Below are positions 2,876 to 63,081 of a stretch of 64,000 nt of DNA, in pieces (position 1 is the stretch's first letter; each line of letters opens with the position of its first letter). A program made the position numbers and the translations under genes. The stretch comes from Octopus vulgaris (taxonomy: Eukaryota), in the NCBI GenBank assembly GCA_951406725.2, contig OX597823.1:40982001-41046000 (forward strand), given 5' to 3'. A model generated the notes under the pieces. That model had not been told where the DNA came from. It saw only the letters and a list, made by a program, of their open reading frames with translations, and did not search any database.

Positions 2876-2984
2876 CCACCAAATCATGTTACAAACGAAC
2901 ATAATTTGGTGGCAAGCACTGTGCATTTGCTCATTGTTATTAGTGTATACTTAGTCACTGGCAGACATTCTCCTTAACTTCTAC

Positions 2985-3033
<49 letters not shown>

Positions 3034-3148
3034 ATGTATGTATGTATGTATATGCAGTAGAAGTTAGGGAGAATGTCTGCTAGTGACTAAGTATACACAA
3101 TAACAATGAGCAAATGCATAGTGCTTACCACAAAATCACGTTCGTTTG
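2873..3148. repeat. Inverted repeat with arms of about 100 bp around a microsatellite loop, plus a nested small hairpin
   Basis: 2892-2992 is the reverse complement of about 3050-3148. 2873-2915 forms TTGCCACCAAAT...ATTTGGTGGCAA. Confidence 0.85.
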
Positions 3149-4080
3149 CAAGTAAAATTTTAGAAAAAATATTTTGAAATGTAAGCATGTACACATTAGG
3201 ACGATGGATGGGCAGAAACCTTAGCGTTCTGGACAAAATTGCATTGGATTTCTTTCGGCGCTTTAAATTCTTAGTTCGTTTCCCAGGAGGTCCATTCTAC
3301 CTTTAATGCAACTATTGCACATAAAATATAGTATTTGGGACGATTTAATCGATTAAATCCTTTCTCACAAAATTTCATGCCTTATGTTTATAATTTTTTT
3401 ATATACACAAATGTATAAAGGCAAAGACTACTGGTGGAATAGTCTAGTAAAAACAGCAACCTGGAGTAAGAAGTGGCCATAAACAGTTGGTATACGACAG
3501 AGGGGGAATGTCATGCAGGTTTCTAGAAGTTGCGTGCCGAACACATGTGAATATCTCTTCAAATATCTGTGAAAGAGAAGAACTTCTTGAAAAAAACTTA
3601 AGAGAAAGCTACAGTTCTTATATCCAAGTTATAGATATTTATATATTTGTTTATTACTCAATTCCGTCTTTTTTATATGCGGAATTGACTAATTTTTTTT
3701 AATATCACCTATCACTTAACGCATGCGTATAAGTACAACTGCGGGAAATATTCACGCTTATTTACGTGGCAGATATATTGCATTTTAACTAAAGGTTGTA
3801 TCATATGTACAGGATATATATTGTTATTTATGGGGGAAATAGAAAAATAAGAGTGAATATTTATTTTATGAGTTCTGCGTATTAAGTCTATAAAATTGTG
3901 CATAAAGAATATAAAGTGTATATATAAAGTGCATTAAGTAATCATCATATTCGAATTACTTTCACTTTTCAATGAGTAGCAGATGAGCGACTATCTTTTG
4001 ATACAGACACAACATAGGCTACGCTTTTAAGTTTTTTGAATAAAGTTTTCAGAAATAACCTAATAGGTTTACCTTTAATT

Positions 4081-23506: not shown

Positions 23507-23510
<4 letters not shown>

Positions 23511-23846
23511 ATATTTCGGGGTAGTCATTTTTTAATATTCATTTTTTCTTAACAAATTAGCACGCGCTCTATTATATCCATTCTTTAGTCATTTAATATT
23601 GTTCTTTCGTCACACACCTGTAACTTCTTCAGCGACGGCACGCAGCATAGGGGCTGAAGAGGTCACTGGTGTGTGACGAAAGATTTCCGGACGATGGACA
23701 TAAGATAAAATAAGAACAATAATAAACGAATGAAAGGATGTATAGTGCGTGTGCTTTTGGGGGCAGAAAAAATTGCCGTCCCGAAATATAACAATCCCTG
23801 TTCCAACATACGTTTTCGTATCAGGAATTTTGCAATACAAATTCAT
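23507..23846. mobile_element. Head-to-head pair of short pLTR fragments related to the main PLE, each with a hammerhead-like motif
   Basis: Minus arm 23507-23633 has CTGAAGA-A-GTTACA(GGTG)TGTGAC-GAAAG and ends in MTTPKYNN. Plus arm 23650-23846 has CTGAAGA-G-GTCAC..GTGAC-GAAAG and reads VPKYNNPCSNIRFRIRNFAIQI, versus MTIPKYNNICFNTRLHIKNLAQQI in the main element. Confidence 0.8.
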
Positions 23847-26723: not shown

Positions 26724-26769
<46 letters not shown>

Positions 26770-26996
26770 AATTTATAAAAATATGGTAAAGTAAAAGAAT
26801 TCACTTTACCACACACCGAACTTTTCAGAAATAGCAGCCAAAAATTTGGCTATTTCTTCAACTGCAAATAAAAGTCTCCAGACAATGCATACTTTTATTT
26901 GCAGTTGAAGAAATAGCCAAATTTTTAGCTGCTATTTCTGAAAAGTTCGGTGTGTGGTAAAGTGAATTCTTTTACTTTACCATATTTTTATAAATT
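26770..26996. repeat. Near-perfect fold-back hairpin (arms about 106 bp, 15-nt loop) next to (TA)n
   Basis: 26770-26875 is the reverse complement of 26891-26996, with one visible mismatch. Confidence 0.92.
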
Positions 26997-27089
26997 AATA
27001 ATTCAAATATACCGTAAATGGTCTTTACATACCGAATACTGCTTGGTCGAATTTATTAACAATTAATTAATTCGACCCCCTTTTTTGAT

Positions 27090-35411: not shown

Positions 35412-35446
<35 letters not shown>

Positions 35447-35449
<3 letters not shown>

Positions 35450-35712
35450 TAAGTAATTAAGGTTTTAGCAACGATTTGCCTCACCACACACCGAATTTAG
35501 AAATAGCAGTCAAAAGAGTTTTGGCTATTCTTTTCTACTTAAAAGGGAGATCCCAGTAAAACCAAGCACTTAACGCGTTGTTTGCCTTTTAAGTGCTATG
35601 GTTTTACTGGGATCTCCCTTTTAAGTAGAAAGAATAGCCAAAACTCTTTTGACTGCTATTTCTAAATTCGGTGTGTGGTGAGGCAAATCGTTGCTAAACC
35701 CTTAATTACTTA

Positions 35713-35715
<3 letters not shown>
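35447..35715. repeat. Near-perfect fold-back hairpin (arms about 125 bp) flanked by (TA)n on both sides
   Basis: 35447-35573 is the reverse complement of 35589-35715. It shares ACCACACACCGAA..AGAAATAGCAG.CAAAA..TTGGCTATT with the hairpin at 26770. Confidence 0.92.
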
Positions 35716-35764
<49 letters not shown>

Positions 35765-36333: not shown

Positions 36334-36364
<31 letters not shown>

Positions 36365-36371
<7 letters not shown>

Positions 36372-36708
36372 ATATTTCGGAATGGTCATATTGCCAGTTT
36401 AGCCAATAAAAACACACGCACTATATATTTGGTGTTATTTTGCTTCAGTGATATTTATTTTTTACATTAATCTTAATCTTATTTCGGCCAAAGTTCTTTC
36501 GTCACACTCCTGTGACCGCATCAGTGGTCCTTTGTTTTCTTCTCACTTACTTGTGTCTCTCCTTACTAACCGTCAGCCATTTTGTATTTCTATTGTATGT
36601 CTTCATTTGCGCATGCTTATATCTCTATGTGCGTCTATGTTTATTTAGTGTGTGTGGGGGGGATGCCTGTAATATTTGTATCTTCTGGTTATATACATTC
36701 TTGTAATT
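36365..36708 (-). repeat. 3' pseudo-LTR of the full-length copy
   Basis: Direct repeat of 40923-41268 that runs into the first codons of the ORF (ATGACCATTCCGAAATATAACAATAT). Confidence 0.92.
36486..36530 (-). ncRNA. pLTR hammerhead-like motif (A9C variant)
   Basis: GGACCA-CTGATGC-G-GTCACA(GGAG)TGTGAC-GAA-AG(AA)CT-T-TGGCC. Confidence 0.6.
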
Positions 36709-37023
36709 TGTATTTTGTTTTTGTTGTTGTTGCTTTTGTTCTAATTTTGTTCATGTGTTTACATCCACCCATTATTATCATTACATATGCTTGTATGTAT
36801 GTATAACAACAATATTAGTAATAATAATAATAAATCTAATCTAAAAAAAAAAAAAAAAAAAAAAAAGAATATACATATACATATATATACATACACATAC
36901 ATATATACACACATATATACACATATACATATACATATATATACACATACACATATATATAGATATTCATTTCTATTTCTTTAATTACCTGTGTATTTAT
37001 TATGTTTGCAGGATCCACTATTA

Positions 37024-40000
37024 TCATATGTTGTGGTGTGCGCTATTGCTCCATTCTAGTTTTCTATTCAGGCTAGGTTTATTTTCTATTATATGTGTAG
37101 CTTCTGTAATTTGTCTAATTGTTGCATCTGTTCTATGTGTGGACAATATCTTAATCTCTATGTTATTGGTTGATCCCCCGTGTTCTTGTTCGGCGTGTTG
37201 GTACAGAATCGATGAGCTTTTACCTTCCTTGAGTTGTCTCCAATGTTCATTCACCCGCTCACCAATGCTTCTTGCAGTTTCCCCTACGTATGTTACTGTC
37301 TTGTTACTGCATCGTCCCTCTATGCATCTTATACTATAGACCACATTTCTGGCTTTACAGTTCGTTTGTGGGCTAAATCTACATACAGTGCAATAGTTAT
37401 CCGTACAGAGAGTTCTACTAAAAGGATAGCTTCTACCAATTATAGATCTGATAGGGTTGCCTGGCTTTTCAACAACCTTAATTCTTAGTTTAAGTTTATC
37501 TAGGGTCCTTCTAAAGCGGTACGCTAGTTCACCTCCAGGGGTGGTGTCAACGAACATGACACTCTGGTATTTATGGCTATCATACCAAGAGTTGGCCTTC
37601 CCTATTTTCTTTTTTGTCCTTTCTATAGTGTTCCATGACTTGTTCCTATAGAGTGGGCAAATCCCATTCCTATCATTACATAATATATTATCAAATTTCT
37701 TCATAGCTCCTTTGTATACTCTGATCCTTTCTTTATGGCTGTAACCTGAGAACTGCATGCGGTGAATGAAATACTGTATGTGTCTCTTTAATTCTGTAGG
37801 CTCGCACATGCGTGACACATTTCTCATTATTCTGATGAGGTCTGCCATCAAAATATTGAATTTGGCATTGCCCGCAATGGCTGAGTTCCAGTGGATCAGG
37901 TATTTTGAGGCCATAGGTTTTGCATAGTATGAATGAAGGATTTGGGTTTTATTTTTCACAATTTCTAGCCAGAGTTCAGTGTCTAGTACTGGTAGTCTAT
38001 GGTTGGGGTGTTTAGTGGGGTAGTCTATTGTGACCTTAATACTCTGGTGGATGGAGTTAGCTATTTGCTGGATGCTCTCCATAGTATTAGTTTCTATTAC
38101 TATATCAACAGTACTCTCTTGTGGGGGTGCCTTTACTACTATATTGATATCATCAACATAGCGAGAGTACATGTTTACGAGTATGGATTTCTGCAGTAGG
38201 CATTCTTTAAGCCTTCTGTCCCACCATACCATGAAGAGGTTGGCCACATCACCAGCGATACTAATACCGATGGCTGCCCCCTCGTCCTGGGCATATATTT
38301 TATTATTAAATTTAAATGTGTGGCCTTTTAGGGTAACTCTTATACTAGCTCCTAGTGCATGTGCGATCATTTTCTTTACCTGATGGACATTTGCGGGGCT
38401 CCGTATGGCTCTGGTCCATCCGCGCCATCTTTCTATATGTGTCTTCCTAGCCATAGAAGTAATTGTAGGCGGTCTACCTCTTAAACATCTACTGGGGCAG
38501 AAACTACTAAGATTATGTTTATCTAAGTATTCACTATTATATGTCAGTCTAAGTAGGAGGCCCAGTTCTTCTGTGTCGACATTACAGAACTCCACCTGGC
38601 TCTCGTTGATCATCTCCACGCACTTCTCCACTGCAAAATCTACGTCAATCGATGGGTATAGGGATACCACATCCATGCTACCTACTATACATCCTGTCAA
38701 GTCACAAGTTTTGTTACAGTCACTGATCCTGCTTAGGAGATCTTCTGTGCTGTCACACACATCAGGTGACATCCTGATTATAGGGTGTATGATCATTGAG
38801 AGGAAGTAGGAGATTCTGTAATTGCTAGCGATATTCGCTCCACAGACTGGTCTTGTTGGTGGTCCTGCTATAGGGTCAGTAAAACCTTTATGGTCCTTGC
38901 GAAGTTCATACAGTGCCGGGATATCATTGTTCCAGGCTTGGAAATTCTTTGCAGTACGTTTCTGAAGTCCCAGAACAATTGTCCACATCATCATGTGGGC
39001 ATTGAGGACCTTTTCTCTCTCCTCATGTGCCTGTACAGTTGTTACTTTTGTATTGGCGATATGAGGTTGCATTGCCTGGATGTAGTTCGGTAAGCTGTCT
39101 ATTGACATCCTGCCGGACTTATCCGTGGGAAGGTATATCACCTCTCCGTTCTTCGTGCGCTGAATGAGCTTCTGTAGGCCACATGCAGGTTTAATCCCTA
39201 GTTGTTGGGCATCTGTCTTATTCTGTCTCTGTCTCTTAATGTATAATCCTAAAATCTGTCTAAGTTTGGTCCTAGCTATAGTGAACTGTGCTTCCATGTG
39301 GTCATTAGTACGTCTTGGGATGTATACTCTTTTGTTGAAGGGTAATGTTGTTGGATAAATTCGGTTCATGCAGTAAGTTTTGTCGCATACGTTGAAGAAT
39401 TGAGTGTCAAAGGGATGGGTATACATGTCAATGGTCTCTCTAGGGTTATCTTCATTATCGTTACTGTTTCCAACATCAGCCTTCCTATTATTATTATCAC
39501 CATTACCACTACTACTACTACTAGTATTCCTATTACCACCACAACTATCACTACTATCCTCATTACTACTTCTACTGTTACCATCACCACTACTACTACC
39601 ACTATTATTGTTATTACCTTTATTCCTACCATTGCCATTATTACTATCATCGCTAGTGATATATTCATTGTTCCTGTTTCTGGTATATGTGTTGTTTATA
39701 TTAGTGTTGGGTTTTATGTCTGTCTGTTGGTCCCTGTCAATCCCCCTGTTGCGGTCGTTATTTTTGTTCCTATGAGTATTGTTATCTGTTTCAAGTCCGC
39801 TGACTCCCTGTCCAAGGATCCTGTTGCATTCAACTTTATTCTCCATCGTGACCCCTATGACACAACTTTTATTCGTGTCTTTGTGACTATGGCTATCTGT
39901 GTGTGTGTTTGTGTGTCGGTTCTCCCTATAATTGTTGTTGTTGTTGCTGTTGTATTCGATTTTTCTCTCTCTGTTTGTGTTTTTGTTTTTGTATCTATTG

Positions 40001-40287
40001 TTTGTGTCTATGCATACATTTTTTCTATTGTTATTGTTGTTGTCGCTGTTAGGGTTCGTGTTGTTGTTATTGTTGCCGCTGTTAGGGTTCGTGTTGCTTT
40101 TGTTGCTATGGTTGTTATTGTTGCGGTCATTATTGTTTGTGTTGTTGTTGCTGCGGTTAGTGTTTTTCGCGTTGTTGTTGTTGTCGCAAGTGTTGTTGTC
40201 ATAGTATCTATTTAAATTCCAACGTATTTTTGTGAATGACTTTTCAATCTCGGACAGGCATTTGATGGTATTCACTTTACTATACAC
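37024..40287 (-). CDS. PLE reverse transcriptase plus C-terminal GIY-YIG endonuclease (main part of a frameshifted ORF of about 1307 aa)
   Basis: RT motifs: PTDKSG, LRKDHK..RPVC, GSMDVVSLYPSI, EGAAIGISIAGDVANLFMVWWD, YSRYVDDI, LPVLD and YYAKPMAS. Cys-rich linker CTDNYCTVC..C. Endonuclease motifs: NVVYSIRC..C..YVGETARSIGERVNEH..HAEQEH..RQITEA..LN. Confidence 0.95.
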   Translation of the reverse strand: MYSKVNTIKCLSEIEKSFTKIRWNLNRYYDNNTCDNNNNAKNTNRSNNNTNNNDRNNNNHSNKSNTNPNSGNNNNNTNPNSDNNNNNRKNVCIDTNNRYKNKNTNRERKIEYNSNNNNNYRENRHTNTHTDSHSHKDTNKSCVIGVTMENKVECNRILGQGVSGLETDNNTHRNKNNDRNRGIDRDQQTDIKPNTNINNTYTRNRNNEYITSDDSNNGNGRNKGNNNNSGSSSGDGNSRSSNEDSSDSCGGNRNTSSSSSGNGDNNNRKADVGNSNDNEDNPRETIDMYTHPFDTQFFNVCDKTYCMNRIYPTTLPFNKRVYIPRRTNDHMEAQFTIARTKLRQILGLYIKRQRQNKTDAQQLGIKPACGLQKLIQRTKNGEVIYLPTDKSGRMSIDSLPNYIQAMQPHIANTKVTTVQAHEEREKVLNAHMMMWTIVLGLQKRTAKNFQAWNNDIPALYELRKDHKGFTDPIAGPPTRPVCGANIASNYRISYFLSMIIHPIIRMSPDVCDSTEDLLSRISDCNKTCDLTGCIVGSMDVVSLYPSIDVDFAVEKCVEMINESQVEFCNVDTEELGLLLRLTYNSEYLDKHNLSSFCPSRCLRGRPPTITSMARKTHIERWRGWTRAIRSPANVHQVKKMIAHALGASIRVTLKGHTFKFNNKIYAQDEGAAIGISIAGDVANLFMVWWDRRLKECLLQKSILVNMYSRYVDDINIVVKAPPQESTVDIVIETNTMESIQQIANSIHQSIKVTIDYPTKHPNHRLPVLDTELWLEIVKNKTQILHSYYAKPMASKYLIHWNSAIAGNAKFNILMADLIRIMRNVSRMCEPTELKRHIQYFIHRMQFSGYSHKERIRVYKGAMKKFDNILCNDRNGICPLYRNKSWNTIERTKKKIGKANSWYDSHKYQSVMFVDTTPGGELAYRFRRTLDKLKLRIKVVEKPGNPIRSIIGRSYPFSRTLCTDNYCTVCRFSPQTNCKARNVVYSIRCIEGRCSNKTVTYVGETARSIGERVNEHWRQLKEGKSSSILYQHAEQEHGGSTNNIEIKILSTHRTDATIRQITEATHIIENKPSLNRKLEWSNSAHHNI

Positions 40288-40337
40288 TGCATACTTTGGT
40301 GGTAGTTGAAGTATCGATGTTTCATCTGGGTCCGTTG

Positions 40338-40946
40338 TTACTCCCCATAGATGTTCGCTTCATTGTCTTTATTGAACTCTTCTGGTAGTAGCACATCTTC
40401 CATAATAATTCCATTTATTGTATCTGGATACTTCTGCTTTTCTTCCTTTGCGAGCTCATATTGACGTTTCTGTTTCAACCACGATAACTTCCTCTTAAAA
40501 TGGATATTGCATTGGTGTATTACATGTCTGTTTTCTTCATATATTATATCTATTATTAAGGTTTTCTCCTTTCGTGTGGTGATACTTTTAATTTCTTTTA
40601 AAAATATACGTTTACGCTTCTCTTGTTCGCTCAGCTCTCTGTATATTCTATTTCTAATATTTACCATTAGCGTCCTTTTTAGTCTTTCCGCTTGTCCGTT
40701 AGTGAGGTCAAGCCGTTTAACGTTGGCTGTGACCTTGTTGATACATATCCTGGACGAGACACATTGTTTTATAAAACGAAGCTGTTGCGTTGTCACAGTT
40801 TTCTTTAGGCAACAAAATATAGTGTTCTTCAGCATCTTGCAAGCCTGGCTGTGGCTCACGTTAGTACGTTTAAATATTTGTTGTGCAAGATTTTTTATGT
40901 GAAGTCGTGTGTTGAAACAGATATTGTTATATTTCGGAATGGTCAT
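40338..40946 (-). CDS. N-terminal part of the same PLE ORF, separated by a 1-nt frameshift
   Basis: Starts inside the pLTR (MTIPKYNN) and is basic. Adding one G to the G4 run at 40343-40346 joins IYG to GVTTDPDETSILQLPPKYAVYSKV, in frame with the RT ORF. Confidence 0.85.
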   Translation of the reverse strand: MTIPKYNNICFNTRLHIKNLAQQIFKRTNVSHSQACKMLKNTIFCCLKKTVTTQQLRFIKQCVSSRICINKVTANVKRLDLTNGQAERLKRTLMVNIRNRIYRELSEQEKRKRIFLKEIKSITTRKEKTLIIDIIYEENRHVIHQCNIHFKRKLSWLKQKRQYELAKEEKQKYPDTINGIIMEDVLLPEEFNKDNEANIYGE

Positions 40947-41268
40947 ATTGCCAGTTTAGCCAATAAAAACACACGCACTATATATTTGGTGTTATTTTGC
41001 TTCAGTGATATTTATTTTTTTACATTAATCTTAATCTTATTTTGGCCAAAGTTCTTTCGTCACACTCCTGTGACCGCATCAGTGGTCCTTTGTTTTCTTC
41101 TCACTTACTTGTGTCTCTCCTTACTAACCGCCAGCCATTTTGTATTTCTATTGTATGTCTTCAAAAGCGCATGTTTATATCTCTATGTGCGTCTATGTCT
41201 ATTTAGTGTGTGTGTGGGGGGGATGCCTGTAATATTTGTATCTTCTGGTTATATACATTCTTGTAATT
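40923..41268 (-). repeat. 5' pseudo-LTR (5'-truncated) of the full-length copy
   Basis: Direct repeat of 36365-36708 with a few diagnostic differences. Confidence 0.92.
41044..41088 (-). ncRNA. pLTR hammerhead-like motif (A9C variant)
   Basis: Identical to 36486-36530. Confidence 0.6.
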
Positions 41269-42711
41269 ACAATTACTTCTATGGCTAGGAAGACACATAT
41301 AGAAAGATGGTGCGGATGGACCAGAGCCATACGGAGCCCCGCAAATGTCCATCAGGTAAAGAAAATGATCGCACATGCACTAGGAGCTAGTATAAGAGTT
41401 ACCCTAAAAGGCCACACATTTAAATTTAATAATAAAATATATGCCCAGGACGAGGGGGCAGCCATCGGTATTAGTATCGCTGGTGATGTGGCCAACCTCT
41501 TCATGGTATGGTGGGACAGAAGGCTTAAAGAATGCCTACTGCAGAAATCCATACTCGTAAACATGTACTCTCGCTATGTTGATGATATCAATATAGTAGT
41601 AAAGGCACCCCCACAAGAGAGTACTGTTGATATAGTAATAGAAACTAATACTATGGAGAGCATCCAGCAAATAGCTAACTCCATCCACCAGAGTATTAAG
41701 GTCACAATAGACTACCCCACTAAACACCCCAACCATAGACTACCAGTACTAGACACTGAACTCTGGCTAGAAATTGTGAAAAATAAAACCCAAATCCTTC
41801 ATTCATACTATGCAAAACCTATGGCCTCAAAATACCTGATCCACCGGAGCTCAGCCATTGCGGGCAATGCCAAATTCAATATTTTGATGGCAGACCTCAT
41901 CAGAATAATGAGAAATGTGTCACGCATGTGCGAGCCTACAGAATTAAAGAGACACATACAGTATTTCATTCACCGCATGCAGTTCTCAGGTTACAGCCAT
42001 AAAGAAAGGATCAGAGTATACAAAGGAGCCATGAAGAAATTTGATAATATATTATGTAATGATAGGAATGGGATTTGCCCACTCTATAGGAACAAGTCAT
42101 GGAACACTATAGAAAGGACAAAAAAGAAAATAGGGAAGGCCAACTCTTGGTATGATAGCCATAAATACCAGAGTGTCATGTTCGTTGACACCACCCCTGG
42201 AGGTGAACTAGCGTACCGCTTTAGAAGGACCCTAGATAAACTTAAACTAAGAATTAAGGTTGTTGAAAAGCCAGGCAACCCTATCAGATCTATAATTGGT
42301 AGAAGCTATCCTTTTAGTAGAACTCTCTGTACGGATAACTATTGCACTGTATGTAGATTTAGCCCACAAACGAACTGTAAAGCCAGAAATGTGGTCTATA
42401 GTATAAGATGCATAGAGGGACGATGCAGTAACAAGACAGTAACATACGTAGGGGAAACTGCAAGAAGCATTGGTGAGCGGGTGAATGAACATTGGAGACA
42501 ACTCAAGGAAGGTAAAAGCTCATCGATTCTGTACCAACACGCCGAACAAGAACACGGGGGATCAATCAATAACATAGAGATTAAGATATTGTCCACACAT
42601 AGAACAGATGCAACAATTAGACAAATTACAGAAGCTACACATATAATAGAAAATAAACCTAGCCTGAATAGAAAACTAGAATGGAGCAATAGCGCACACC
42701 ACAACATATGA
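41268..42711 (+). pseudogene. 5'-truncated inverted copy of the PLE ORF (RT C-terminal half plus GIY-YIG)
   Basis: The 491-aa track ORF matches the minus ORF from TITSMARKTH onward, except R/C, WN/RS and T/I changes. It lacks RT motif A, and its first 12 or so residues come from antisense pLTR. Confidence 0.92.
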
Positions 42712-43200
42712 CAATAGTGGATCCTGCAAACATAATAAATACACAGGTAATTAAAGAAATAGAAATGAATATCTATATATATGTGTATGTGTATATATAT
42801 GTATATGTATATGTGTATATATGTGTGTATATATGTATGTGTATGTATATATATGTATATGTATATTCTTTTTTTTTATTTTTTTTTTTCGATTAGATTT
42901 ATTATTATTATTACTAATATTGTTGTTATACATACATACAAGCATATGTAATGATAATAATGGGTGGATGTAAACACATGAACAAAATTAGAACAAAAGC
43001 AACAACAACAAAAACAAAATACAAATTACAAGAATGTATATAACCAGAAGATACAAATATTACAGGCATCCCCCCACACACACTAAATAAACATAGACGC
43101 ACATAGAGATATAAGCATGCGCAAATGAAGACATACAATAGAAATACAAAATGGCTGACGGTTAGTAAGGAGAGACACAAGTAAGTGAGAAGAAAACAAA

Positions 43201-43245
43201 GGACCACTGATGCGGTCACAGGAGTGTGACGAAAGAACTTTGGCC
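43201..43245 (+). ncRNA. pLTR hammerhead-like motif (A9C variant)
   Basis: Same motif as 36486-36530, on the plus strand. Confidence 0.6.
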
Positions 43246-43403
43246 GAAATAAGATTAAGATTAATGTAAAAAATAAATATCACTGAAGCAAAATAACACC
43301 AAATATATAGTGCGTGTGTTTTTATTGGCTAAACTGGCAATATGACTATTCCGAAATATAACAATATCTGTTTCAACACACGACTTCACATAAAAAATCT
43401 TGC

Positions 43404-43463
<60 letters not shown>

Positions 43464-43941
43464 ATACATATATATATATATTGTGTGTGTGCGTATAAGT
43501 ACCTGTATATTTGTAAATATATACGTTTTATATAATGTGTAGGCATCTGTATACGTTATATTATATCAGTGTGATGTGCGTGTGTGTGTGTGTGAGTGTG
43601 TGCCTGTCTGTATGTGTGTTTAGGGAATGTGTGTACGTGACACGTGCACTTTAAGCATGAGGTAAGCTCAAAGGAAATTTAATCCATGATTCAATTATGA
43701 TCCACGCTTGTTGCGTATCTCGTCCTGTCGTCTTAGGTTACTAATGCGTTTACGAAATGGATAAACATTTCAACTCATATTCCTTCTCCCATAAAAATCA
43801 ATGAAGTTAAACAATGTTGAGGAAATACCAAACAAGTTACCGTATTTGTCTGTATAAATATTAGTGACTCGAATAATTATCTCGTTCTCCTTATCTCTAC
43901 CTACGTACACGTAACTACCCATATATCTACCTGTTTGTTTG

Positions 43942-61756: not shown

Positions 61757-61955
61757 GTGAATGAATTATCCTATGTTTATCGTCAGCATGGAAAATTTGT
61801 TGAACCGAAACCAGGGTAGCAAATTCACGTCAGAAACACGGTTGAATCGACCTGTCCAGGGGTAGAAACTCCGGGTTCATGTGCAGAAATTTGTGTGTTG
61901 TATATGAATAAATGAAAGAATGGAGTCGAACGAAGATGTTAACAAAATTCCTTTA

Positions 61956-62037
61956 CTCTCGACATATGTTTCGAAGACAACATGGTTTCATTCCAAAGGA
62001 ATAAAGGCTGCATTATGCAATCTTCTCATCAGGAAAG
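61956..62037 (-). ncRNA. Canonical-core hammerhead ribozyme with extended stem II
   Basis: CTTTC-CTGATGA-GAAGA...TCTTC-GAA-ACATATGT-C-GAGAG. Confidence 0.8.
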
Positions 62038-62314
62038 AAAGGGAGCCTCTCTCGACAACAAGACAAACAAAAATTTCGATGACTGCCTACATGGTAAACA
62101 AAACGATAATGAGTGTTTTTAAAAAAACTGTTAGAAGAATTGACGTCAAAGATAGATAGTAGGAAGAGAAGGGTTAAAGGAATAATAGGTAGGGAACAAG
62201 TGGAGAGGGAAGGGTACGTTGATTGAAAGAACGTTCGAAGGCTTAGGAAAGAATTTCGCTATTGAAGTGGAGTGCACGTTAAGCTAATTGTTCAAACCAC
62301 AGTGACTATCGTTA

Positions 62315-62548
62315 TCATTTATATGAGTAGAAAGTATGTTTCTGCCAGTGTTTACATTTGTATGATTTTTCTATGAGTGTGTTTACAAGGGGAACCTTAG
62401 AGTAGAGAATATGGAAAAGTTCAGAGTTGCAAATGTTACAAAATCTTCTGCCCTTATCAAAAGGAAAGGATACAGACAGTATGAACCAATCTAACTTGAA
62501 ATTTATATTCTTATCTTTAAGACGCCAAACTAATTTACTTAGCCCTGT
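62315..62548 (-). pseudogene. C-terminal end of a PLE GIY-YIG endonuclease domain (5'-truncated, no start codon)
   Basis: Open frame TGLSKLVWRLKDKNINFKLDWFIL...FCNICNSELFHIL...LVNTLIEKSYKCKHWQKHTFYSYK*. It resembles the T.LS..IW.LK..W.I..CxxC..E..LN..C.H tail of some PLE endonucleases. Confidence 0.7.
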
Positions 62549-62921
62549 AAATTAGTAACATTTTGTAACATTTGCAACTCTGAACTCTTCCATATTCTCT
62601 TCTCTAGAAAAATCATACAAATGTAAACACTAGCAGAAACATACTTTCTACTCATATAAATGATAACGATAGTCACTGTGGTTTGAACAATTAGTTTAAC
62701 GTGCACTCCACGTCAATAGCGAAATTCTTTCCTAAGCCTTCGAACGTTCTTTCAATCAACTTGTTGCCTACCTATTATTCCTTTAATCCTTCTGTTCGTA
62801 CTATCTATCTTTGACGTCAATTCTTCTAACGGTTTTTTAAAAAACACTCATTATCGTTTTGTTTACCAAGTAGGCAGTCATCGAAATTTTTGTTTGTCTT
62901 GTTGTCGAGAGAGGCTCCTTT

Positions 62922-63003
62922 CTTTCCTGATGAGAAGATTGCATAATGCACCCTTTATTCCTTTGGAATGAAACCATGTTCTCTTCGAAACATATGTCGA
63001 GAG
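62922..63003 (+). ncRNA. Canonical-core hammerhead ribozyme with extended stem II
   Basis: Stem I CTTTC/GAGAG, CTGATGA at 62927-62933, stem II GAAGA/TCTTC, GAAA, palindromic ACATATGT, and a GUC triplet ending at 62998. Confidence 0.8.
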
Positions 63004-63044
63004 TAAAGGAATTTGTTAACATCTTCGTTCGACTCCATTCTTTC

Positions 63045-63081
<37 letters not shown>

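Follow-up and report, generated by a model that had tools for sequence, protein, structure and literature searches.

What kind of mobile element occupies positions 36364-43417 of a 64,000-nt stretch of Octopus vulgaris DNA (contig OX597823.1; hereafter the window), and how did its 3' end come to be present in two opposite orientations? The region hosts a Penelope-like element (PLE), which a sequence-only reading had described as young, nearly intact, head-to-head inverted and of the Naiad clade. The closest relatives that telomerase has are the reverse transcriptases (RTs) of PLEs. At this locus a full-length minus-strand PLE meets, 5' end to 5' end, an inverted 3' copy of ~2.1 kb, and the element is not a Naiad. 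The explanation that we favour, with confidence somewhat better than even, is one recent insertion of a PLE with a C-terminal endonuclease (EN), likely of a deep lineage outside the named clades, both arms likely being the outcome of a single event at the two cut strands of a (TA)n target. The chances are about equal that this lineage is an undescribed ninth deep PLE clade, widespread in marine animals, which combines a C-terminal EN with a conserved RT-fingers subdomain of telomerase length.

Domains of the encoded protein

The protein carries, in this order, an RT, a thumb, a cysteine (Cys) linker and a GIY-YIG EN; the RT and GIY-YIG motifs and the Cys-rich linker noted by the earlier reading were all found. 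An AlphaFold model of the protein (pLDDT 92.6) resembles telomerase RTs from residue 25 to 560, these being its top hits in Foldseek and VIA (Z 12-16), and model residues 661-758 align to I-TevI (Z 10.2, root-mean-square deviation 2.1, 88 residues aligned). The predicted structure supports the identity of the element as a PLE with a telomerase-related RT; the GIY-YIG EN is provided with CCHH residues. A Pfam scan of the window open reading frame (ORF) gave no match at E 1, PDB sequence searches returned weak RT matches only, and 13 relatives fall below the Pfam cut-offs of RVT_1 and GIY-YIG. Domain-based annotation would therefore tend to miss, or mislabel, the group.

The Asp of motif A and the Gln of motif B are separated by 128 residues in the window protein. 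The interval hosts an insert marked by the motifs ELGL, CP.R..GR.P.IT and R...W, with near-invariant residues E255, C278, R281, G285, P288, R301 and W305. The insert is predicted to be folded, and adds ~70 residues at the position where telomerase has its insertion in fingers domain (IFD). When the insert was folded alone, its 149-aa model had no counterpart among solved chains at E 0.001 or Z 5, a result which does not make it a new fold. By analogy with the telomerase IFD, found at the same position, the insert most likely grips the template RNA or the primer duplex. In the parts of the two papers available to us, inserts at this RT position are reported in some Coprina (PMC8557442) and in the rotifer Penelope families Pen3/Pen5a (PMC3846280). 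We therefore favour an independent gain, possibly with an IFD-like job.

Additional traits of the group are the motifs DKS and RKDHK, a motif B of the G[AP]IG type, and WWD. In the aligned rows DK is invariant (68/68) and S is found in 65 of 68, and the four linker cysteines are conserved in 97-100 of 98-100 rows. The N-terminal spacer is lengthened by an Asn-rich tract to 364 aa, versus 100-139 aa in the 17 relatives in which it is measurable. Penelope ORFs of Adineta vaga similarly host long in-frame inserts containing 25-30% Asn; these are located between RT and EN, or between core and thumb, while the window tract is upstream of the DK motif (PMC3846280, as available).

Relatives and position among the named clades

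The relatives gathered are 264, in sets of 120 and 144. Both domains are present in 178 of them, and the EN follows the RT in 177 of the 178. In the relative P0272 an EN of the group type (residues 50-173) lies ahead of the RT, most likely because of in-frame read-through of a tandem, a true permutation being the alternative. By one fixed measure, the spacing of motifs A and B is 132-138 residues in the first set (96 measurable of 120) and 123-154 in the second (44 of 144). The same measure gives 64-67 in Neptune-like (110/120) and 60-63 in Hydra-like (47/120) sequences. Counted by hand on Fig. S1 of PMC8557442, the spacing is 57-60 residues in Penelope, Neptune and Nematis, ~81 in one Naiad, 102 in one Chlamys, and between 110 and 149 in three TERTs. 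Searched against 1.84 billion representatives, a profile built on 110 members retrieved 2637 clusters at E 1e-30, a figure which may include other PLEs; the best 144 new clusters were examined. Matches in the ESM Atlas were RT clusters. Named hosts are octopus and the sea cucumber Holothuria leucospilota, most other records being contigs.

Naiads, as defined in the available part of PMC8557442, have their EN at the N-terminus, show the DKA and CxC motifs, and lack a canonical hammerhead. The window element does not belong to this clade because its EN is C-terminal, DKS stands in place of DKA, and it carries a hammerhead. The motifs AIG..IAG..WWD and RGRPPTIT, once taken as pointing to Naiad, are indeed diagnostic, but of a different group. 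Naiad and Chlamys resemble the window element in hosting an insert at the IFD position, in targeting microsatellites, in forming inverted 5'-truncated copies and in carrying a tail; they differ in the N-terminal EN, in DKA and CxC, in the lack of a canonical hammerhead, and in a shorter insert (motif A-B spacing ~81 and ~102 by hand count). That the element is a Naiad, or a Naiad-derived RT that switched to a C-terminal EN, is very unlikely. The (TA)n targeting and the insert are in keeping with it, and sisterhood to one Naiad-like fragment was not rejected. Yet, the EN is C-terminal in 177 of 178 relatives, the motif is DKS and not DKA, a hammerhead is present, the spacing is 128 rather than ~81, and the fragment scores 8 bits on the group profile and groups away in the maximum likelihood tree (86.8/94).

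The phylogeny was built on reference RTs from the same genome and from searches, labelled by motif and not by curated name: Neptune-like, Poseidon-like and Hydra-like sequences, plus one decayed Naiad-like fragment. The alignment counted 82 sequences and 294 columns, with the insert largely trimmed, and 46 sequences entered IQ-TREE. The tree splits 23 group members from 23 references on a branch of 1.58 (SH-aLRT 99.4, UFBoot 97), and places the Naiad-like fragment away from the group (86.8/94). On whether the RT groups within Naiad, the tree has only this lone degenerate fragment to show: it stands apart, and its sisterhood was not rejected. On profiles, the window protein scores 560 bits with its own group, 73 with Neptune-like and 2 with Hydra-like sequences. 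An approximately unbiased (AU) test rejected nesting inside the Neptune-like sequences (p 1e-5); topology tests were run on 21 sequences with fast trees and too few replicates.

Among the remaining clades, Neptune shares with the window element a C-terminal EN with a Cys linker, and is the best-scoring reference group (73 bits); Pfam DUF8422 is common to Neptune and some relatives. In contrast, Neptune has a long CX2-5CxxC linker, DKG, no IFD, and a spacing of 64-67, and nesting within it is rejected. In a young Neptune-like family of the same genome (L070:906-4587) a 781-aa RT-EN frame, common to many copies, lies behind a separate upstream frame of 359 aa. Hydra elements share the C-terminal EN, the (TA)n target, the hammerhead, and the KDHK and RW motifs, but lack CCHH, have a CxCX5C linker, DKT, the motif B MGSYDGAE and a spacing of 60-63, and are shorter than 3 kb. 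Unlike the window element, Penelope and Poseidon have no Cys linker upstream of the EN, and the RT ORF of Athena and Coprina has no EN. Telomerase RTs provide the best structural matches (Z 12-16), and their motif A-B spacing (110-149, hand count) spans the 128 of the window protein. The latter has an EN and no TERT RNA-binding domain, and its insert, taken by itself, resembled no solved chain at Z >=5.

Nematis deserves separate consideration. Nematis and window elements have in common a C-terminal GIY-YIG EN with CCHH residues, a short Cys linker, a similar stretch past the thumb, terminal repeats (pLTRs) and a tandem/inverted layout, as judged from figures of PMC8557442. The element may thus belong to a divergent branch, or a sister group, of Nematis, which gained an RT insert and kept the transposition mechanism unchanged; we regard this as possible, though clearly not probable. 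The short Cx4CxxC-x7-C linker, the CCHH residues, and the post-thumb stretch (VVEKPG), by eye similar to that of Nematis_Pp and Nematis_Cr, support such kinship. However, Nematis has DKG/DKR, GLAMG[SN]RLAP as motif B and a spacing of ~60 by hand count, while the window protein has DKS, G[AP]IG..A/TG and 128 residues; RKDHK, WWD, the ~70 residues added from motif A to motif B, and the 1310-aa ORF are additional differences. EN modules may moreover have been exchanged between clades (PMC8557442, in the part available).

The group is probably an undescribed PLE lineage. Several data weigh against the view that it is a clade of its own. Linker and EN look Nematis-like by eye on Fig. S2/S7 of PMC8557442, the RT motifs do not, and Nematis sequences are absent from the tree; for these reasons a divergent Nematis branch is the main rival. 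Athena, Coprina, Chlamys and TERT sequences are missing from the tree as well, and the reference labels are motif-based. The quick test, run with too few replicates, did not reject sisterhood to Naiad-like (p 0.245), Hydra-like (0.67) or Neptune-like (0.126) sequences. Inserts at this position arise repeatedly in PLEs, and length alone does not therefore imply kinship with the IFD. No description of such a group was found in the open-access literature, a scope that excludes Repbase, closed-access papers, and the supplements of PMC13282606 and bioRxiv; Repbase or those supplements may list the family as ‘Penelope’. References for Nematis, Naiad, Hydra and Poseidon were sought in viral and metagenome contigs, where nothing usable was found. 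In the genome, a first Naiad motif pattern had no match, and a Nematis-type pattern identified one decayed copy.

Organization of the locus

The features of the region are the following.

36337..36363, no strand: (TA)n target, left flank (from the sequence)
36364..36708, minus: terminal repeat (pLTR) at the 3' side of the main copy, tail-free end (self-comparison)
36486..36530, minus: predicted minimal type I hammerhead motif, C for A at core position 9 (motif search)
36709..37023, minus: remaining 3' untranslated region, a T-rich tract plus a TA/CA microsatellite block (from the sequence)
37024..40359, minus: downstream frame of the ORF, 1111 aa between stops, covering the PPKY motif, the Asn-rich tract, RT and thumb, the Cys linker and GIY-YIG
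37074..37410, minus: short Cx4CxxC...C linker and C-terminal GIY-YIG EN with CCHH residues
38289..38679, minus: stretch of 128 aa from motif A to motif B of the RT, containing the conserved ~70-aa insert
39438..40224, minus: in-frame low-complexity insert of ~260 aa, rich in Asn, lying upstream of DKS
40338..40955, minus: upstream ORF frame, 205 aa, N-terminus of the single ORF of the family
40344..40347, minus: 1-nt frameshift, private to the window copy among the copies examined
40921..41268, minus: 5' repeat, the 3' end of a truncated upstream tandem copy; hammerhead at 41044-41088
41268..43367, plus: inverted 5'-truncated copy, beginning within the RT insert; hammerhead at 43201-43245
43368..43417, plus: 50-nt tail, the start of the next unit, at the right end only
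43418..43481, no strand: (TA)n target, right flank (from the sequence)

Comparison of the window with itself confirmed the 2.1-kb inverted 3' copy with few differences: the arms 36364-38467 and 41268-43367 are 99.38% identical over 2104 columns, with 9 mismatches and 2 gaps, and differ outside the microsatellite block by 7 substitutions and 1 indel. The right arm extends 50 nt beyond the left-arm match, to 43417. As formerly noticed, the element is bordered at both ends by (TA)n, inside which a target-site duplication is not resolvable. The inverted copy hosts a 492-aa open frame, running from inside the RT through the EN. The direct repeats 36364-36708 and 40921-41268 are 97.1% identical. The locus had been described as a complete pLTR-ORF-pLTR unit; the repeats are there, but the supposed 5' pLTR, of 348 bp, represents only the end of a tandem copy lying upstream, the length of which varies between loci. 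The first ATG of the 205-aa frame, at 40946, falls within this 5' repeat.

In four DNA runs the contig depth of the terminal repeat (40921-41268) is about a thousandfold that of the 5' ORF. The value is not a copy number; it suggests a great abundance of short 3' stubs from this family and close ones.

Origin of the inverted layout

Tandem and inverted arrangements are described as typical of PLEs by Craig et al. 2021 (PMC8557442, part available); the inverted layout is ordinary, and already published. In 14 of the 18 sister loci fetched, an inverted 5'-truncated copy adjoins an upstream partial copy, the two being at most 8 nt apart and the junction point differing each time. One tailed (50-60 nt) and one untailed end were found in all 6 sister loci in which both termini are complete, and in the window as well; the other loci of the 18 examined had an end lost, or beyond the fetched stretch. 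Of the element ends listed, 22 of 26 reach (TA)n. Relative to the sister majority, 5 variants are common to both window arms, and 3 of the 5 occur in no sister.

One tail per insertion and the five arm-shared variants fit a single event, in which two primed cDNAs would have been joined at their truncated 5' ends. The one-insertion origin of the inverted configuration is supported by shared variants, tail pattern and sister layouts alike. In the anole, according to the available part of PMC11167929, a PLE nicks AT-rich DNA on both strands and extends the two, reverse transcription starting at two adjacent RNA sites that bound the tail. By analogy, the protein encoded by an intact sister copy would bind a tandem read-through RNA, and its GIY-YIG domain would nick both (TA)n strands. 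Reverse transcription would begin at two RNA sites 50-60 nt apart, generating one tailed and one untailed end; the cDNAs would end early, after 4.9 kb and 2.15 kb, and be joined 5'-to-5' at 41268. A datum against the scheme is that 4 single sites and one 3-nt change distinguish the 5' repeat from both 3' repeats, slightly more than the arms differ from each other. A single circular template would not predict such a divergence, and a linear tandem template suits it better.

The inversion could alternatively be an assembly artefact, or a later rearrangement, a reading that we find barely credible. No junction-spanning contig was seen among those listed from four runs, but these contigs are short, and the observation was not used as evidence. 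Against an artefact stand the 7 substitutions and 1 indel that tell the arms apart outside the microsatellite block, the presence of the tail at one end only, and the recurrence of this layout in 14 of 18 sister loci, where the junctions differ.

Reading frame and age of the family

The coding region of the main copy is split into a 205-aa and a 1111-aa frame. Four G residues are found at 40344-40347 in the window, where 18 of 19 sister loci have five G at the same anchor. The nineteenth carries a substitution near the G run and likewise reads through, so all 19 sisters are uninterrupted at this point, and it follows that the family has one ORF. An uninterrupted ORF of 1310-1312 aa was found in 7 of the 18 sister loci fetched. 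A programmed frameshift between the two frames was considered, and is ruled out by the read-through of the sisters. The extra base is present in contigs of 3 of 4 DNA runs, and of 2 of 4 runs guessed to be RNA. The 1-nt deletion may be either a mutation or an assembly error in the homopolymer; if real, the window copy would now yield no full protein. The element cannot thus be called nearly intact, the frameshift setting it apart from 19 of 19 sisters.

The family is young and probably recently active, as earlier suggested. The RT-EN region of 16 copies differs on average by 0.43% (range 0-1.23%), and intact ORFs occur in 7 of 18 loci. Matches to the insert region are 94-99% identical (150 scored of 2009 candidates), and the nearest named protein is a predicted protein of Octopus vulgaris, 97% identical. 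At the rate of 0.0036 per million years quoted in PMC13282606, the 7 substitutions per ~1940 unmasked bases that separate the arms correspond to ~0.5 million years, less if some are errors. According to the available part of the same paper (Bonar et al.), 31 Penelope-like families have been recently active in O. vulgaris.

Hammerhead motifs

A motif search confirmed that hammerheads are present: the minimal motif occurs in all three terminal repeats, at 36486-36530, 41044-41088 and 43201-43245. All carry the extra base before stem II described for minimal hammerheads by Cervera and de la Pena (PMC4209133, part available). Core position 9 is C in all 25 occurrences listed, from 20 loci of the family. 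The fold is unremarkable (z -1.67), and Rfam yielded nothing from a hammerhead family at E 5, its matches being to miRNAs of a microsatellite-like kind. The C9 hammerhead is possibly a weakened, or a protein-dependent, ribozyme. An older relative at 23507 has the canonical A at this position, in contrast to the C found throughout the window family.

Other repeats in the window

The 23507-23825 region consists of two short 3' ends, from a related PLE family, arranged as a fold-back. Its left end lies in (TA)n, a canonical hammerhead occurs at 23654, and the end structure is that of the main element. By gapped local alignments the fold-back is 56-64% alike the window pLTR, and its own arms are 57% alike. 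The nearest genomic copies are 74-85% identical, many at ~80%, versus a difference of 0.43% within the window family. These values speak for an older relative rather than a product of the burst of the young family, which had been taken as its likely driver.

Additional repeats were noticed. Decayed fragments of a Tc1/mariner-type transposase (HTH_Tnp_Tc3_2, DDE_3) lie at 1160-1903 on the minus strand. A ~1.15-kb fold-back with long arms (61901-63057) has its right end in (TA)n and no similarity to the PLE pLTR. Short palindromic elements adjoining (TA)n, by score unrelated to the PLE pLTR, are found at 35416-35746, 26766-27000 and 2889-3151.

Double-stranded RNA

The locus might matter mainly as a source of long double-stranded RNA for ADAR or RNA interference, a hypothesis that we consider improbable. 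Any read-through transcript would contain both arms, and the geometry formerly pointed out is thus possible. Yet, the substitution counts (A>G 55, G>A 92, C>T 65 across the window and its 18 sisters) reveal no A-to-G excess as a footprint of ADAR. A scan of 92 window ORFs, by which small exons would be missed, identified Tc1-type fragments only, and no host exon. The 92 ORFs were taken from 131 listed candidates, 32 ORFs of the flanks and 7 of the window being omitted. Runs guessed to be RNA cover the family; these reads are not attributable to the window copy, nor shown to be RNA, and were not used as evidence.

Implications

In the current scheme PLEs are subdivided into eight clades, and the IFD is tied to elements with an N-terminal EN and to some Coprina (bioRxiv 10.64898/2026.07.22.740005, part available). 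A large group in which a C-terminal EN coexists with a conserved insert of telomerase length changes the way in which gains and losses of this subdomain are read. A ninth clade, if true, would break the published rule that canonical PLEs with a C-terminal EN have no IFD. Young intact copies of the family offer, in turn, an enzyme with which the two-start-site mechanism and the role of the insert may be tested.

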